DNA of 64,000 nt from a phage. This document shows, one piece after another, positions 21,428-52,437 of this stretch (the first letter of the stretch is position 1; each line of letters begins with the position of its first letter). A program made the position numbers and the translations under genes. The notes under the pieces were generated by a model that was not told the DNA's origin, ran no database searches, and worked only from the letters and a program-made list of their open reading frames with translations. The stretch lies in assembly GCA_033580375.1 (NCBI GenBank), contig GCA_033580375.1_4527.1; one strand, given 5' to 3'.

Positions 21428-21593
21428 TTTGTTTTCCTCTATAGCAGTTGGTTTAATCTTAACACATCTATCGAGGATGTAAACTGTTTTATGAAAAATA
21501 TTTTTGATTTGAGAGGGGCACAAGGAGATAGTGAAGTGAAGATTCCAATGGATTATATTAGAAATAGGATAAAGAAGACCAGGCGGCACCTGG

Positions 21594-21914
21594 TCAATCT
21601 TCTATGATATCAGAGTCGTATCCTAATGAAATCAAGGACTTTTTAAACTCTGCAATATTCTTTTGTTTCTTATCATTTAAAAATATGACAGGATAACGAA
21701 TATTAAGTGAAGTGAATCCTGCACGTTTAGCAAGAGATACGATTAAAGGACGGTCGTATTCAATCTTACCATTATTAGTGAGGACTTTATAAAATGTATA
21801 AGGAACATTGAGCTCCTTTAAAAGTTTTGTAACAGTATAACATCCTGGACAACGTCCAACTTCTTCAGGGATGCCATAAATTTCAATCTTGTTCTTTAAG
21901 TTCGAGTTTTGTTC
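21594..21914 (-). CDS. nrdH: Glutaredoxin-like protein (NrdH-like), about 106 aa
   Basis: CPGCY redox motif; candidate GTG start with AAGGA SD (no in-frame ATG near the conserved N-terminus); upstream of nrdG-nrdD. Confidence 0.6.
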   Translation of the reverse strand, partial: EQNSNLKNKIEIYGIPEEVGRCPGCYTVTKLLKELNVPYTFYKVLTNNGKIEYDRPLIVSLAKRAGFTSLNIRYPVIFLNDKKQKNIAEFKKSLISLGYDSDIIED

Positions 21915-22200
21915 CACGAGAAATAATTCCTTGGTAAGCCCAATAAGGAGGATTAACAGAATCCTCACCCGAGTTTTCTTCAGGAAAATAAACCTGGATA
22001 ACGAAGCCGGATTCATCAAATGTAAAATAAACTGTAGGCAGTTCACCTAACAATTCGGCGCGAGCATTAATTTCTTCGAGATCTCGTTCACGTCCAGCCC
22101 AAAAACTAGGATTTAGATTACATTCGTAAAAATAATAGTCATTACCGAACATATCAAACCCATTCCAACTCTCTACCACGTACCGCTCAAAACTAATCAT
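21883..22200 (-). CDS. Hypothetical protein, 105 aa
   Basis: ORF. Confidence 0.5.
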   Translation of the reverse strand: MISFERYVVESWNGFDMFGNDYYFYECNLNPSFWAGRERDLEEINARAELLGELPTVYFTFDESGFVIQVYFPEENSGEDSVNPPYWAYQGIISRGTKLELKEQD

Positions 22201-22202
22201 AA

Positions 22203-22418
22203 TTAAGCCTTTTTATCAAGAACAGAATTCAGTTTGTTAGTAATTTTATCCAGACGCTCATTGAACTCATTAGAAGATAAGCCCTTTTCTGGAGAAATTA
22301 AACTAATCACGAAAAATACACCAGTAAAAGGAATAAGAAAAATAGCTCCAACTGCCATAAACAAAAAGAACGTTACAGTTGTAAGAAAATCAGCTAAACC
22401 TTTACGAAATTTATACAT
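22203..22418 (-). CDS. Hypothetical membrane protein, 71 aa
   Basis: Hydrophobic segment LTTVTFFLFMAVGAIFLIPFTGVFFVISLI. Confidence 0.5.
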   Translation of the reverse strand: MYKFRKGLADFLTTVTFFLFMAVGAIFLIPFTGVFFVISLISPEKGLSSNEFNERLDKITNKLNSVLDKKA

Positions 22419-22532
22419 ATTTACCCTTAATTAATTAACCAAGCATTGATAAGCACTAAACTATATTGCGAATAAAATTCTGGACCAAAATGAAAAATCA
22501 TATCATTTATAGTATCCATAATGTAGTTCAAT

Positions 22533-23003
22533 TTAATCATGTTTCCACACCCCATCGGTATTTGACCAAAGTCGCTGATTATCTGATCCTCGCCATAGCT
22601 TTTTGGTCGGAAGATTTTTCTCATACTTCCCATCAATAATAACATCAACATATTTAAGCATTTCTAGCTGTTTAATATCTTCAAACTTATATCCTGTCCA
22701 CAACCAAATGCTTTTATTGGGATAAAGATTTTTAATAGTTTGAACCACAGAATGAATAACATCTCGGTTGTCAGGATAGAGAGGGTCTCCTCCAGATATA
22801 GTTAATCCTTCTATATAATCATTATTCAAACATTCAATTAATTGTTCTAGTGTCTCTCCGGTGAATGGAGCACCATTTCTAGCGTTCCATGTTGATTTAT
22901 TATAACACCCTTCACATTTATGCAAACACCCTGTAACGAAAAGAACGACCCTACAACCAGGGCCATTAACAAAATCGCAAGGATAAAATCTATCATAATT
23001 CAT
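22533..23003 (-). CDS. nrdG: Anaerobic ribonucleotide reductase activating enzyme NrdG (radical SAM), 156 aa
   Basis: CxxxCxxC cluster (GCLHKCEGC); ATGA overlap with nrdD stop. Confidence 0.9.
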   Translation of the reverse strand: MNYDRFYPCDFVNGPGCRVVLFVTGCLHKCEGCYNKSTWNARNGAPFTGETLEQLIECLNNDYIEGLTISGGDPLYPDNRDVIHSVVQTIKNLYPNKSIWLWTGYKFEDIKQLEMLKYVDVIIDGKYEKNLPTKKLWRGSDNQRLWSNTDGVWKHD

Positions 23004-24817
23004 TGGTGTTTAACCCTATGCATGATTTCTTTATTTTTACCGAGATTAAATCCGCGTTCGTTCGGATTTCCAAGATAACCGCATGTTCTTCTTATGGTGT
23101 TCATCTTTTTAGGATCAGTTTCTCCGCAAACTGAACAAACAAATCCATTTTCAGTAGGAGTCATTTCATGAGTACTTCCACATGTAAAACATTTATCTAC
23201 TGGCATATTAACACCAAAATAATCTAAATGTTGTGCAGCATAATCCCAGACAGCCTCAAGTCCCTTTAAATTGTTTTTCATATCAGGAAGTTCAACATAA
23301 GAAATGTGACCACCTGTCGCAATGAAATGATATGGCGCTTCACGAGAAATCTTTTCAAACGGAGTAATATTTTCTTCTACTGAAACGTGGAAACTATTAG
23401 TGTACCAGCCTTTATCGGTAACATCTTTTACACTTCCGTATTTTTCTGTATCAAGTTTACAGAAGCGATAACAAAGGTTTTCAGCAGGAGTCGAATATAA
23501 ACTAAAAGCAAATCCAGTTCTTTCAGTCCACTGTTTAAGATGAGCATTCATTTTAGTTAAAATTTCTTGCCCAATATCACGACCGACAAGAATATTCAAT
23601 TCGTGAATACCAATGTATCCCAAAGACACTGAACTTCTACCGTTTTTAAATAACTCAATTATGTCGTCATCTGGTTTAAGACGAACCCCGAATGCACCTT
23701 CTTGGTAAAGAATAGGAGCAACAGTCGCTTTAACTCCTTTTAAGGAACTAATTCTACACATCAAAGCTTCAAAACATAAATCCATTCGTTCATTGAATAA
23801 TTCAACAAATTTCTGTTCATTGAACTGTGTTCCAATATAAGAATCTAATGCGATACGAGGAAGATTCAGCGTTACAACACCGAGATTATTACGCCCATCA
23901 AGAATTTCATTACTGGTTGAATCTTTCCATACGCTCAAGAAACTACGGCAACCCATTGGAGAAACTGGAACTGAAGAACCGGTAATAACTTTGTTATTCT
24001 TAACCGAAATGATGTCAGGATACATTCTTTTGCTTGCACATTCTAACGCAAGCTGCTTAATATCATAGTTCGGGTCGTCTTTATAAAGATTAACACCTTC
24101 TTCAATGAACATAACAAGTTTAGGGAAAATAGGAGTTATTCCATCACGACCAAGACCTTTAATCCGATTTTTCAGAATTGCTTTCTGAATCATTCGTTCA
24201 GTCCAATCGGTTCCCGTACCAAATGTAATTGTTACAAAAGGCGTTTGTCCATTTGAACTAAAGAGAGTATTTACTTCATATTCATAAGCTTGGAATGCAT
24301 CGTATACGTCTTTTTCTGTTTTAGATTGAGCATAATTCAACGCATCAGCGATTTGCCATTTTTCTGCATCCTCAATATGTTTTGCATAGGTGCGTTTAAC
24401 ATAAGGAGAAAGTACTTTATCTACATTAGCAAAAGTCGTTCCGCCGTATTGATGTGAAGCAACTTGTGCAGTAATTTGTGCCATAATTGCAGTAGCAACA
24501 CCAATCGATTTAGGCGTTTCAATTTGAGCATTGCCTAATTTAAAACCATTCTCAAGCATCCCCTTTAAATCGACTAAACAGCAATTGGTAAACGGAAGAG
24601 CAGGAGAATAATCAATATCATGCATATGAATGATTCCGCTTTCATGCGCATTCATAATAAAAGACGGGACCATATTTTTGGCAATGTGCTTAGACACAAT
24701 ACCAGCCATAAGGTCCCGTTGAGTTGGAAAAACACGAGAATCTTTATTAGCATTCTCGTTCAAAAGATCTTTATTAGTTTTATAAATTAATCCTTCAATT
24801 TCTTTTTCAATTTTCAT
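23000..24817 (-). CDS. nrdD: Anaerobic ribonucleoside-triphosphate reductase NrdD, 605 aa
   Basis: C-terminal glycyl-radical motif RRTCGYLG and Zn-ribbon CxxC...CxxC; uninterrupted ORF (no intron). Confidence 0.95.
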   Translation of the reverse strand: MKIEKEIEGLIYKTNKDLLNENANKDSRVFPTQRDLMAGIVSKHIAKNMVPSFIMNAHESGIIHMHDIDYSPALPFTNCCLVDLKGMLENGFKLGNAQIETPKSIGVATAIMAQITAQVASHQYGGTTFANVDKVLSPYVKRTYAKHIEDAEKWQIADALNYAQSKTEKDVYDAFQAYEYEVNTLFSSNGQTPFVTITFGTGTDWTERMIQKAILKNRIKGLGRDGITPIFPKLVMFIEEGVNLYKDDPNYDIKQLALECASKRMYPDIISVKNNKVITGSSVPVSPMGCRSFLSVWKDSTSNEILDGRNNLGVVTLNLPRIALDSYIGTQFNEQKFVELFNERMDLCFEALMCRISSLKGVKATVAPILYQEGAFGVRLKPDDDIIELFKNGRSSVSLGYIGIHELNILVGRDIGQEILTKMNAHLKQWTERTGFAFSLYSTPAENLCYRFCKLDTEKYGSVKDVTDKGWYTNSFHVSVEENITPFEKISREAPYHFIATGGHISYVELPDMKNNLKGLEAVWDYAAQHLDYFGVNMPVDKCFTCGSTHEMTPTENGFVCSVCGETDPKKMNTIRRTCGYLGNPNERGFNLGKNKEIMHRVKHQ

Positions 24818-25287
24818 TTTAAACTCTTTCTAAGCTGCTTTTTGAATGAAGCTATTAATTGTGTTTTAGTATCAGATTCATTATATTCAAATCCTCTTTG
24901 AAGCATCTCAGCCATCATTTCCTCTTTACCTAGTCTTGAGAACTCTTTAGTTTTGTCTGGAACAAAATTAGGATGTATATTATTATCAGAATAATCTTGT
25001 TTCAAATAAGCAAGAAGAGCTTCAAGCCATTCGAGGTAGTCGACATCACGACCTTTAAGACCAGAACGGTTGAACTTATGCTTCATTTGGCCTTCTGCTG
25101 CGTTGCACAGAGAACAGAGTAACCCACGAACTCTACCGGCTTTTGGCCCGTTTAATTCATGGTCGTGGTCAAGATGGTTACCTTGAACATCAGAGTCTAA
25201 TTCACGGTGGCAAATAGGACACTTACCGTTCTGTGCATCATAAAATTTTTGTTTTTCTTCTTTATATTTTGCGCCTGATAATAACAT
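24814..25287 (-). CDS. 49: Endonuclease VII (Holliday junction resolvase) gp49, 157 aa
   Basis: MLLSGAKYKEEKQKFYDAQNGKCPICHRELD...HLDHDHELNGPKAGRVRGLLCSLCNAAEG matches T4 endo VII as recalled. Confidence 0.92.
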   Translation of the reverse strand: MLLSGAKYKEEKQKFYDAQNGKCPICHRELDSDVQGNHLDHDHELNGPKAGRVRGLLCSLCNAAEGQMKHKFNRSGLKGRDVDYLEWLEALLAYLKQDYSDNNIHPNFVPDKTKEFSRLGKEEMMAEMLQRGFEYNESDTKTQLIASFKKQLRKSLK

Positions 25288-25316
25288 GATAAACCCTTAC
25301 CTTAAATAGATAAGGG

Positions 25317-25324
25317 TATTTATA
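25317..25324 (-). promoter_or_regulatory. Late promoter TATAAATA upstream of gene 49
   Basis: Exact TATAAATA on minus strand about 30 nt upstream of the 49 ATG; T4 gene 49 is known to have a late promoter. Confidence 0.55.
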
Positions 25325-25326
25325 AT

Positions 25327-25524
25327 TTAGTAAACTTTATAAAAGTTACGATGAGAACGTTTAGCTTTGCGAAGCTGACGTTTAGTAGGACGAACTGTAA
25401 ATGGTTGTCCAGAGAAAAAATTCGGATCGGTTTTAATAAGCAAATACCAATCATGCTTGCCATTTTTTAATAAACGGTACAATAATTTAACTTGCATAAT
25501 AATCTCTTCCCATTTCCATATCAA
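25327..25524 (-). CDS. Hypothetical basic protein, 65 aa
   Basis: ORF. Confidence 0.45.
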   Translation of the reverse strand: MIWKWEEIIMQVKLLYRLLKNGKHDWYLLIKTDPNFFSGQPFTVRPTKRQLRKAKRSHRNFYKVY

Positions 25525-25625: not shown

Positions 25626-25982
25626 TTAACCCCGGAGTTTATTGAGCTCTTCATAATCAATCCAGGATTCTAGTCCGGATGGCAGGTCACATTCAATGTT
25701 CCACAGAAGCTCTTCAATGGCTTGCAGGCGATTATATTCTTCAACGGTAATGGTAACCATTGGTGCAACCGGTTCTGCCTTTTTAACCATCATATCGTTC
25801 ATCAGGACGTAAAGGTCATCACGAACGACAGTGTCGTTCCAACCCCATGATTTGGCTTCGTAAGCTAATGATGAAGGGAGCACATTTAAAACTTCAATAA
25901 TAGTTGGAGCATCAGGACCAAGTTCATTGGCACAAACTTCGTATACATCTTGGAAATCTTTAAGATTTAATGAATATGTCAT
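25626..25982 (-). CDS. Hypothetical protein, 118 aa
   Basis: ORF, ATGA overlap with nrdC stop. Confidence 0.55.
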   Translation of the reverse strand: MTYSLNLKDFQDVYEVCANELGPDAPTIIEVLNVLPSSLAYEAKSWGWNDTVVRDDLYVLMNDMMVKKAEPVAPMVTITVEEYNRLQAIEELLWNIECDLPSGLESWIDYEELNKLRG

Positions 25983-39210: not shown

Positions 39211-39425
39211 TAAGGAATTTCCTCATCGGTGGCAAGGTCATATTCGACCAATTGGATAGGCTCATTAATACCATATCCACGTACAGTGATATCAGTTGTC
39301 GGATAGTTTCCAGTAATATCACCCATTCTAAATGCTTCAATGAATGATTGCTCGCCTGAGCAACTAAACCAGGCGGCAAAACATTTTAAAACATCTTCAG
39401 ACCCTTCTATAATCAATTTAGCCAT
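39201..39425 (-). CDS. Hypothetical protein, 74 aa
   Basis: ORF. Confidence 0.5.
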   Translation of the reverse strand: MAKLIIEGSEDVLKCFAAWFSCSGEQSFIEAFRMGDITGNYPTTDITVRGYGINEPIQLVEYDLATDEEIPYVD

Positions 39426-39787
39426 TATAGACTCTCAGTAAAGGTACGAGCGATAACGTCGCGCTGCTGTTCTGGAGTCAGAGAGTTAAAGCGAACTGCA
39501 TAACCGGATACACGAATGGTCAGCTGAGGATATTTTTCCGGATGCTTAACTGCATCTTCCAGAGTTTCACGACGCAGAACGTTAACGTTCAGATGTTGAC
39601 CACCTTCAATTTTAACTTTAGGTTGATGTTCAATTTCAATTTCACGGGCATTCAAACCGTAGAAAATTTCAGGGTCTACAATAGCGTCTTCTTTAAAAGT
39701 CTTAGAGACAATAATCCGGGCTTGAGTACCGTCTTCAAAATAAATAGTGCCTTTATGTGCACCTTCAAGAATTTGATATGCTTTCAT
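39425..39787 (-). CDS. Autonomous glycyl radical cofactor (GrcA/YfiD-like), 120 aa
   Basis: C-terminus [61 protein letters not shown] is the PFL glycyl-radical module (RVSGYAV). Confidence 0.88.
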
Positions 39788-52280: not shown

Positions 52281-52357
<77 letters not shown>

Positions 52358-52363
52358 AATATA

Positions 52364-52437
52364 TGACCCAGACCAGATTCGAACTGGTAACCTTTCCCTT
52401 ATGAGGGGACTGCTACTAACCGTTGAGCTACAGGGCC
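52364..52437 (-). tRNA. tRNA with CAU anticodon (Met, or Ile if lysidine-modified), 74 nt, no encoded CCA
   Basis: Hand-folded: acceptor GGCCCUG/CUGGGUC (one U-U mismatch), anticodon loop CUCAUAA, T-arm ACCAG-UUCGAAU-CUGGU. Confidence 0.7.

Follow-up and report, generated by a model that had tools for sequence, protein, structure and literature searches.

The window, a stretch of 64,000 nucleotides (64 kb) of phage DNA, carries on its minus strand a run of genes that reads nrdD, nrdG, two small genes and a gene for an NrdH-like protein; vs.6, on the same strand, lies 15 kb from the nrd genes (Table 1). The open reading frames of nrdD, nrdG, the nrdH-like gene and vs.6 are all present. The two small genes between nrdH and nrdG, which resemble ORF082c of RB69 and gp55.8, had not been mentioned in the initial annotation; the 3' end of the ORF082c-like gene overlaps the GTG start of nrdH by 35 nt. 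Gene names and order agree with RB69 and T4, as judged by a comparison of annotations. RB69-like (Mosigvirus) phages are about 96% identical to the window; LF82-x, PECP20 and RB69 show 96-97% nucleotide identity over 4 kb, and 98% in the vs.6 region. By sequence, then, the phage is an RB69-like T-even phage (Mosigvirus) and a relative of T4. A promoter scan gave sites no more numerous than in shuffled sequence and was not used; both the promoter and the terminator calls are pattern matches, which shuffled sequence yields about as often.

Table 1. Genes and other features of the nrd and vs.6 regions, in window coordinates.
Feature	Position	Strand	Description	Evidence
Terminator-like hairpin	21577..21595	-	Hairpin and T-run directly after the nrdH stop	Consensus scan; pattern match only
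nrdH	21594..21917	-	Glutaredoxin-fold protein, 107 aa, C23-P-G-C26, GTG start	Pfam Glutaredoxin, PHROG 22, homologue profile
ORF082c-like gene	21883..22200	-	Similar to RB69 ORF082c, 105 aa	PHROG 2749, E=1.6e-49; RB69, wV7 and SP18 annotations
Shine-Dalgarno-like AAGGA	21928..21932	-	10 nt upstream of the nrdH GTG	Read from sequence
gp55.8-like gene	22203..22418	-	Small predicted membrane protein	PHROG 1930, E=6e-35; position as gp55.8 in T4 and RB69
nrdG	22533..23003	-	Radical-SAM activase of NrdD, 156 aa	TIGR02491; Pfam Fer4_12, E=2.4e-49
nrdD	23000..24817	-	Class III (anaerobic) ribonucleoside-triphosphate reductase, 605 aa, uninterrupted	Pfam NRDD, E=3.7e-171, and Gly_radical
Site equivalent to the T4 nrdD group I intron insertion	24279..24280	-	After CDS nt 538, codon 180; continuous	GCTTATGAAT directly followed by ATGAAGTAAAT
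vs.6	39425..39787	-	GrcA-type autonomous glycyl-radical protein, 120 aa, Gly95 in RVSGYAV	Pfam Gly_radical, E=2e-18
Host-like 3' half of vs.6	39428..39610	-	61 codons	Codon alignment and breakpoint

The product of nrdD scored 902.6 bits against the NCBIfam equivalog model NF006732 (cutoff 657) and 565 bits against TIGR02487 (cutoff 326). It is collinear with T4 NrdD (PDB 1H78) over residues 1-605, with about a dozen substitutions, and residues C79, C290 and N311, the zinc-site cysteines C543/546/561/564 and the radical glycine G580, in the motif RRTCGYLG, are all found at the T4 positions. The curated models and the catalytic residues identify the protein as the class III anaerobic ribonucleotide reductase NrdD. 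We infer its chemistry, an oxygen-sensitive reduction of NTPs with formate as the reductant, from the near-identical T4 enzyme. NrdG scored 201 bits against NCBIfam TIGR02491 (cutoff 126), and its CX3CX2C cluster motif reads C26LHKC30EGC33; the start of its gene overlaps the stop of nrdD in the sequence ATGA. The identities first proposed for NrdD and NrdG were thus borne out by curated family models, catalytic residues and the alignment to 1H78.

The NrdH-like protein proved harder to place. Its match to Pfam Glutaredoxin was borderline (23.1 bits for a cutoff of 22.9), and it matched PHROG 22, a thioredoxin-domain family, with E=4.5e-16. As a single sequence it found the T4 glutaredoxin NrdC with E=0.014, and a profile built from seven homologues aligned with the T4 glutaredoxin structures 1AAZ/1ABA over the whole fold with E=7e-7. 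The closest solved relative is thus NrdC (PDB 1AAZ/1ABA), with which the protein has in common a thioredoxin-type fold, an N-terminal CxxC and a cis-Pro region (YPVIF vs. MPQVF). It differs from NrdC in having CPGC rather than CVYC and a C-terminal extension of about 20 residues ending in DIIED, and the overall sequence similarity is low. These comparisons point to a glutaredoxin-fold paralogue of T4 NrdC.

The initial annotation had noted that this reading frame appears to need a GTG start, and the sequence agrees. Downstream of the stop of the preceding gene there is no in-frame ATG, and the first usable start is the GTG at 21917. The same GTG is annotated as the start in T4, RB69, wV7 and SP18; the AAGGA element that precedes it is also present in RB69, wV7 and SP18, and in T4 it stands at a spacing of 6 nt. 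In a comparison of the nrdH start across nine phages, distant relatives had an ATG placed 0-3 codons ahead of the first beta-strand. Two other starts were considered and rejected: the one ATG in frame is far upstream and falls within the preceding gene, and an ATT at the position of the ATG of KPV15 has no Shine-Dalgarno sequence. For these reasons the GTG at 21917 was retained. The 150-aa reading frame listed at first, with an end coordinate of 22046, is only a mechanical maximum.

The name given to the protein raises the question of whether it is a genuine NrdH-class redoxin, a dedicated electron donor of the anaerobic reductase that would form one functional set with nrdD and nrdG. Bacterial NrdH typically carries CVQC and serves the class Ib enzyme NrdEF, and the reductant of NrdD of the T4/E. 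coli type is formate, not a thiol redoxin. The motif found here is CPGC, and the neighbours of the gene are nrdG and nrdD, of class III, with no nrdE or nrdF in the T4 and RB69 annotations of the region. The NCBIfam NrdH model TIGR02194 was not matched at E<=0.01, and the sole NCBIfam match, to a YruB-type glutaredoxin-like model, reached 17 bits for a cutoff of 88.6. The gene does stand in one string with nrdD and nrdG, the terminator-like hairpin occurs only after it, its product combines a CxxC motif with a thioredoxin-type fold, and a T4 review groups NrdG and NrdH as parts of the anaerobic reductase (PMC2993671). Nevertheless, with TIGR02194 unmatched and T4 NrdC, not a bacterial NrdH, as the best structural relative, we rejected membership of the bacterial NrdH family and consider a dedicated NrdH redoxin unlikely. 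Of the NrdH-like glutaredoxin initially described, the glutaredoxin fold with its CxxC stands, and the NrdH family does not. The gene had also been described with nrdG and nrdD as an anaerobic set; the link of the NrdH-like protein to anaerobic reduction is one of co-location only, given by gene position and by the terminator-like hairpin after the gene. Its role is the weakest part of the overall reading, because the Pfam glutaredoxin cutoff was barely reached and the NrdH family model failed.

The T4 gene is interrupted by a group I intron of 1033 nt that encodes I-TevII; nrdD of the window lacks it, as had been proposed. Alignment to the T4 gene by blastn, with reconstruction of the junction, placed the 1033 extra nucleotides of T4 after CDS nt 538, and in the window the exons run on without interruption from 24280 to 24279. 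The allele reads GCTTATGAATATGAAGTAAATACTCTCTTT at the intron and I-TevII site. Searches of nrdD for an intron, an intein or an endonuclease (Rfam, alignment to T4 DNA, collinearity with 1H78) found none, an Rfam search of the full 64 kb returned no group I intron, and neither mobC nor another homing-endonuclease gene lies between nrdG and nrdD. The open reading frame, the Rfam search and the T4 alignment thus agree on an uninterrupted 605-aa gene, and without the I-TevII intron no splicing is needed. That T-even phages vary in whether they carry introns was already recognized in the 1980s (PMC2988022). The T4 nrdD intron was present in only 25 phage records, compared with about 935 records that have the region; many of the 25 are isolates of T4, and most are either T4 or very close relatives with at least 99% identity. 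The Mosigvirus records listed all lack the intron. The intron-less nrdD is therefore the normal state and not the exception.

Could the uninterrupted gene nonetheless be a notable derived state, produced by a recent, precise loss of a T4-type intron or by active resistance to it? Within the 30 bp that surround the site, seven positions depart from the T4 exon junction, all seven synonymous, and five of the seven fall within the 10 bp where I-TevII cuts. Ordinary synonymous drift predicts these differences equally well, nrdD as a whole being 94% identical to that of T4. Given also that the intron is restricted to T4 and its closest relatives, loss or resistance seems distinctly improbable, and the simplest reading is that the lineage of the window never had the nrdD intron.

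The initial annotation had also described a stand-alone 120-aa module with the motif RVSGYAV, and suggested that it could repair oxygen-damaged pyruvate formate-lyase (PFL) of the host. The open reading frame, the Pfam Gly_radical match and a search against E. coli GrcA (PDB 6OWR, E=2e-42) all confirmed the module; the match to the C-terminus of PflB had E=3e-26. The protein has the architecture of GrcA, that is, a small stand-alone protein with a PFL-type radical domain and RVSGYAV at its end. Against the NCBIfam GrcA equivalog TIGR04365 it scored 159.1 bits, under the cutoff of 170, because its N-terminal part (residues 1-17) has diverged. It is 7 residues shorter than E. coli GrcA (YfiD), to which its radical domain is identical at 60/61 residues but its N-terminal 59 residues at only 19/59. 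The gene is annotated as GrcA in RB69 and T4, and about 1,600 phage records contain a GrcA-like gene. With 113 of 120 residues identical to T4 vs.6 (Y06I), the protein of the window is its orthologue. That vs.6 should be a spare radical domain for the phage NrdD, or a decoy that titrates host PflA, with no repair of host PFL, is highly improbable: NrdD and vs.6 are both glycyl-radical proteins of one phage, and NrdD too is cleaved by oxygen at its glycyl radical, but the NrdD motif is RRTCGYLG and not RVSGYAV, the radical domain of vs.6 is nearly that of host GrcA and resembles the C-terminus of PflB, and the T4 orthologue reconstitutes cleaved PFL. The last point, that Y06I rescues oxygen-cleaved PFL, was shown biochemically (Wagner et al., 2001, as cited in PMC8683613), and by analogy it supports the suggested repair of host PFL by vs.6.

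The two halves of vs.6 differ in their relation to the host gene. The 3' tract is identical to E. coli grcA at 175/183 nucleotides, a closer match than Salmonella grcA, for which the figure is 154/183. Its codon usage is of the host type (CTG), seven of its eight differences from E. coli grcA are GC-to-AT changes, and when all 64 kb were compared with 5,426 E. coli genomes by megablast, nothing but this tract matched, which makes it the only host-like DNA in the window. Copies at least 95% identical to the tract are present in 639 phage records. Possibly, Escherichia grcA DNA recently took the place of the radical-domain half of vs.6, next to an old, AT-rich N-terminal half of phage origin, although we put this forward tentatively and regard it as somewhat doubtful. 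A single acquisition before the split of the T4 and window alleles would suffice, because the two tracts have two derived changes in common and their mutual distance fits; recurrent gene conversion, which we also considered, is not required. In a Klebsiella Jiaodavirus, the 3' half of vs.6 is GC-rich (0.56) and nearest to grcA of the Pseudocitrobacter/Raoultella type (166/183) among 80 grcA loci listed, K. pneumoniae being absent from them, while in more distant phages the 3' half showed no affinity for a specific host grcA. It is thus only suggestive that the tract follows the host in other phage genera. We found no earlier description of this mosaic in the limited literature searched. If the replacement is real, homologous exchange with the chromosome of the host would let T-even phages keep their PFL "spare part" in step with whichever host they currently infect. 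The replacement would also be a clean, datable case in which a virulent phage has taken up a portion of a host gene through homologous-segment replacement, and the host-matched tract would show why a spare-part protein must fit host PFL and PflA exactly.

Taken together, we are highly confident that these are the usual auxiliary genes of T4 type that serve growth when the host is short of oxygen, carried by an RB69-like phage with an intron-less nrdD and a GrcA-type vs.6, and no sequence evidence contradicted this. We infer the functions of the proteins in this phage from their T4 orthologues. NrdG, a [4Fe-4S]/S-adenosylmethionine activase probably coupled translationally to nrdD through the ATGA overlap, would install the radical in NrdD, which would then reduce NTPs to dNTPs by way of the Gly580 glycyl radical and a Cys290 thiyl radical, with formate as the reductant. 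The nrdD allele itself would be one without the mobile 1033-nt I-TevII intron, the neighbouring mobC also being missing. Downstream of nrdG, past the two small genes, the predicted unit would end with the CPGC glutaredoxin-fold protein (NrdH of the T4 annotators) and the terminator-like hairpin; this protein may be a general dithiol reductase that possibly keeps the cysteines of NrdD reduced. As for vs.6, host PflA would activate it, by analogy with T4 Y06I, and the activated protein would dock onto oxygen-cleaved host PFL and restore its activity. Restored PFL could sustain host fermentation during infection, and therefore keep up the supply of formate and energy.

Seen against known phages, nrdD, nrdG, the nrdH-like gene with its GTG start and vs.6 are ordinary versions of genes already annotated in RB69 and T4, and the absence of an intron, the stand-alone gene of GrcA type and the GTG start are likewise standard. 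The finding amounts to recognizing, in an RB69-like genome, textbook genes of the T4 family, and it matters little, the host-derived 3' half of vs.6, if such it is, being the sole point of modest wider interest. RB69 (NC_004928) has nrdH, ORF082c, 55.8, nrdG, nrdD and 49, as well as vs.6, in the same order and orientation and with 94-98% nucleotide identity; like the window, it has an intron-less nrdD, a GTG-started nrdH and a vs.6 annotated as GrcA. It differs in that its gene 49 is followed by pin and ORF087c, which the window lacks, and in its reference nrdH, which a 2-nt difference near the 3' end shortens to 90 residues, whereas the window has the full 107. T4 has a near-identical 605-aa NrdD (nrdD, also sunY, and nrdG; PDB 1H78, 1HK8) with the radical, thiyl and zinc-site residues in common, and an equivalent hairpin likewise follows its nrdH. 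T4 lacks the ORF082c-like gene, and its activase gene lies downstream of nrdD as in the window, but with mobC in between.

The phage is a close relative of RB69 (Straboviridae, Tevenvirinae, Mosigvirus): a 4-kb stretch around the genes treated here is 96-97% identical to RB69-type Escherichia phages (LF82-x, PECP20, ESh27 and RB69 itself), and the region of vs.6, which encodes a GrcA-type protein, is 98% identical to them. Gene coordinates were taken from a mechanical ORF list of the window, and all the genes lie on the minus strand.

Features of the nrd and vs.6 regions
Feature	Position	Strand	Basis
NrdH-like ORF	3' end at 21594	minus	ORF list
RB69 ORF082c-like gene	21883-22200	minus	105-aa ORF; PHROG 2749
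gp55.8-position ORF	22203-22418	minus	71-aa ORF
nrdG	22533-23003	minus	156-aa ORF
nrdD	23000-24817	minus	605-aa ORF
I-TevII target equivalent	24250-24289	minus	comparison with T4 exon junction
gene 49	24814-25287	minus	ORF list; endonuclease VII by family search
vs.6	39425-39787	minus	120-aa ORF
host-like tract, vs.6 3' half	39428-39610	minus	comparison with E. coli grcA

Family searches identified NrdD, the class III anaerobic ribonucleotide reductase (Pfam NRDD, E=3.7e-171; NCBIfam NF006732, 902.6 bits, cutoff 657), and NrdG, its radical-SAM activase (TIGR02491, 201 bits, cutoff 126). NrdD is collinear with the crystallised T4 enzyme over residues 1-605 and differs from it at about a dozen positions; Gly580 and the four cysteines of the zinc site are retained, as are Cys79, Cys290 and Asn311. 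NrdG carries the motif C26-x3-C30-x2-C33. Since the ORF list, family matches and catalytic residues agree, the genes described in the initial annotation are real and correctly placed. As in T4 and E. coli biochemistry, NrdG would use SAM to form the Gly580 radical on NrdD, which would reduce NTPs with formate. At the DNA level, nrdD (compared over 22983-24817) is 94% identical to T4 nrdD, compared with 79-88% for its neighbours (nrdH, 79%; nrdG/55.8, 84%; gene 49, 88%), and this unusually conserved island adjoins known T4 homing-endonuclease sites.

In T4, nrdD is annotated as two pieces with the endonuclease I-TevII inside the group I intron, and a second homing-endonuclease gene, mobC, lies between nrdD and nrdG. 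The alignment of the window gene with that of T4 falls into two blocks, nt 1-536 and 539-1818 of the CDS, between which 1033 nucleotides were present in T4 only. Reconstruction of the T4 splice joined exon 1, ending in GCTTATGAGT, to exon 2, starting with ATGAAGTGAAC, with T as the last base of the 5' exon and G as the last base of the intron. At this junction the window reads uninterrupted through GCTTATGAAT/ATGAAGTAAAT and encodes the same AYEYEVNTLFSSN as T4. The Rfam search, which covered the full 64 kb, detected no group I intron and matched nothing but two tRNAs. Adjacent tRNA-Arg(TCT) and tRNA-Met(CAT) genes, part of a phage tRNA cluster, are found at 52281-52437 (minus). Moreover, nrdG begins within the nrdD stop (ATGA overlap), so that there is no mobC between the two genes. 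Thus, nrdD is uninterrupted, as had been proposed, and lacks both the intron and an associated homing endonuclease, the I-TevII-bearing 1033 nucleotides being missing. Over the 30 bp spanning the insertion site, the window is identical to RB69 and has seven synonymous differences from the T4 exon junction, five of them in the 10 bp furthest downstream. At an identity of at least 99%, the T4 intron sequence was confined to 25 phage records, among which are many T4 isolates, against 935 records matching the 4-kb query around nrdD. Together with reviews reporting that the three T4 introns vary in occurrence among close relatives (PMC2988022), and with a count in which no more than 16 out of 128 phage genomes with RNR had any split RNR gene (PMC3653736), this indicates that an intron-less nrdD is not unusual.

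The NrdH-like protein is a thioredoxin-fold dithiol protein. It was borderline for Pfam Glutaredoxin (23.1 bits, cutoff 22.9) and matched PHROG 22, 'thioredoxin domain' (E=4.5e-16), and a profile of seven homologues matched NrdC, the glutaredoxin of T4, across the entire fold (E=7e-7), with no bacterial NrdH structure among that profile's matches. The NCBIfam NrdH model was not matched either. Given the similarity to NrdC and the failure of the NrdH model, 'NrdH' is a historical label. Of the anaerobic set proposed initially, the identities of nrdD and nrdG stand. What ties the NrdH-like protein to anaerobic reduction is solely its position in the gene string and a terminator-like hairpin directly 3' of its stop, similar to one after T4 nrdH. 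Speculatively, it could act as a general reductant or one directed at the NrdD cysteines.

That this ORF needs a GTG start was borne out. The frame contains no ATG downstream of the TGA (21885-21883) that ends the preceding gene; its earliest start codon, GTG at 21917-21915, has AAGGA upstream at 21932-21928 and gives a 107-aa protein beginning VEQNSNLKNKIEIYGIPEEVGRCPGC. T4 nrdH (102 aa) has the homologous GTG with AAGGA 6 nt upstream, and the same GTG is annotated in RB69, wV7 and SP18; this is the accepted annotation. The EcS1 homologue starts with TTG, and the more distant KPV15, KP27 and Ac42 have an ATG 0-3 codons ahead of the conserved IEIYG strand. In the RB69 reference, nrdH (L001 1744-2016) is annotated as only 90 aa, shorter than at window 21594-21917; the cause is a 2-nt difference close to its 3' end, within a run rich in A (aaacaaagatatt versus aaacaaaagaatatt), which reflects a frameshift or else an error in sequencing. 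The complete C-terminus, with DIIED at its end, is encoded by the window, wV7, SP18 and T4.

Other differences in layout were seen nearby. The ORF082c-like gene, whose 3' end extends 35 nt into nrdH, across its GTG start, in a different frame, lies between gp55.8 and nrdH in RB69-like, wV7 and SP18 phages and is absent from T4. At 25288-25400, the window lacks about 600 bp relative to RB69 (L001 5437-6095), which there hold ORF087c and pin, encoding an inhibitor of the host Lon protease. The two ends of this segment in RB69 carry copies of a 55-nt direct repeat (75% identity), suggesting that it was lost when one copy recombined with the other; a layout without pin is also found in PECP20 and a small number of other relatives. 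A 118-aa ORF at 25626-25982 (minus), annotated in the same fused form in PECP20, is represented in RB69 by two ORFs, 091c and 092c; the C-terminal half of the 118-aa ORF has a match (E=1e-32) to PHROG 3402, which is labelled 'antitoxin from a toxin-antitoxin system'.

The vs.6 protein contains a glycyl-radical domain (Gly_radical, E=2e-18) and has matches both to E. coli GrcA (PDB 6OWR, E=2e-42) and to the C-terminal end of pyruvate formate-lyase (PFL; E=3e-26). Its gene is flanked by vs.5 and vs.7, the same position as in RB69 and T4, for which RefSeq uses the name GrcA; 1,589 phage records, T5-like phages among them, contain homologues. The gene itself is a mosaic, with a breakpoint between AAA and ATTGAAGGTGGTCAACA. 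Upstream, DNA identity to E. coli grcA is about 50% (19/59 residues in the protein); from the breakpoint to the stop codon, it is 175/183 nt (60/61 residues), as against 179/183 for T4 and 177/183 for RB69. Over the same stretch Citrobacter grcA shares 169/183 nt and Salmonella grcA 154/183 with E. coli grcA; the tract, being nearer E. coli than Salmonella is, is specifically Escherichia-type. Its GC content is 0.46 (0.35 in the 5' half of vs.6, 0.37 in the window), five of its six leucine codons are the host-type CTG (2/45 in phage nrdD), and seven of its eight differences from E. coli grcA are GC-to-AT. When the whole window was searched by megablast against 5,426 complete E. coli genomes, the only match was 39417-39609, once per genome, in grcA. 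Among phages, tract identity is sharply bimodal, with 639 records at 95% or above, 8 at 90-95%, 298 at 80-90% and 566 at 60-80%. The simplest reading is that the radical-domain half of an ancestral phage GrcA homologue was replaced, fairly recently, by Escherichia grcA. Two derived changes are common to T4 and the window, so one acquisition before their alleles split would suffice. No earlier description of the mosaic was found in the literature searched, whose coverage excluded several key older papers.

The proposed repair of PFL by this protein agrees with a role already established for its T4 orthologue Y06I (113/120 residues identical). According to PMC8683613, Y06I and E. coli YfiD are the only two biochemically validated 'spare part' proteins, and Y06I, activated by PFL activase, restores oxygen-cleaved PFL (citing Wagner et al., 2001). 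By analogy, host PflA would activate the vs.6 protein, which would complement cleaved host PFL and so sustain acetyl-CoA and formate production. The vs.6 mosaic is the sole item that might merit a short note; the genes are confirmed and their interpretation supported, but all of this was known before and stands in the RB69 and T4 annotations.
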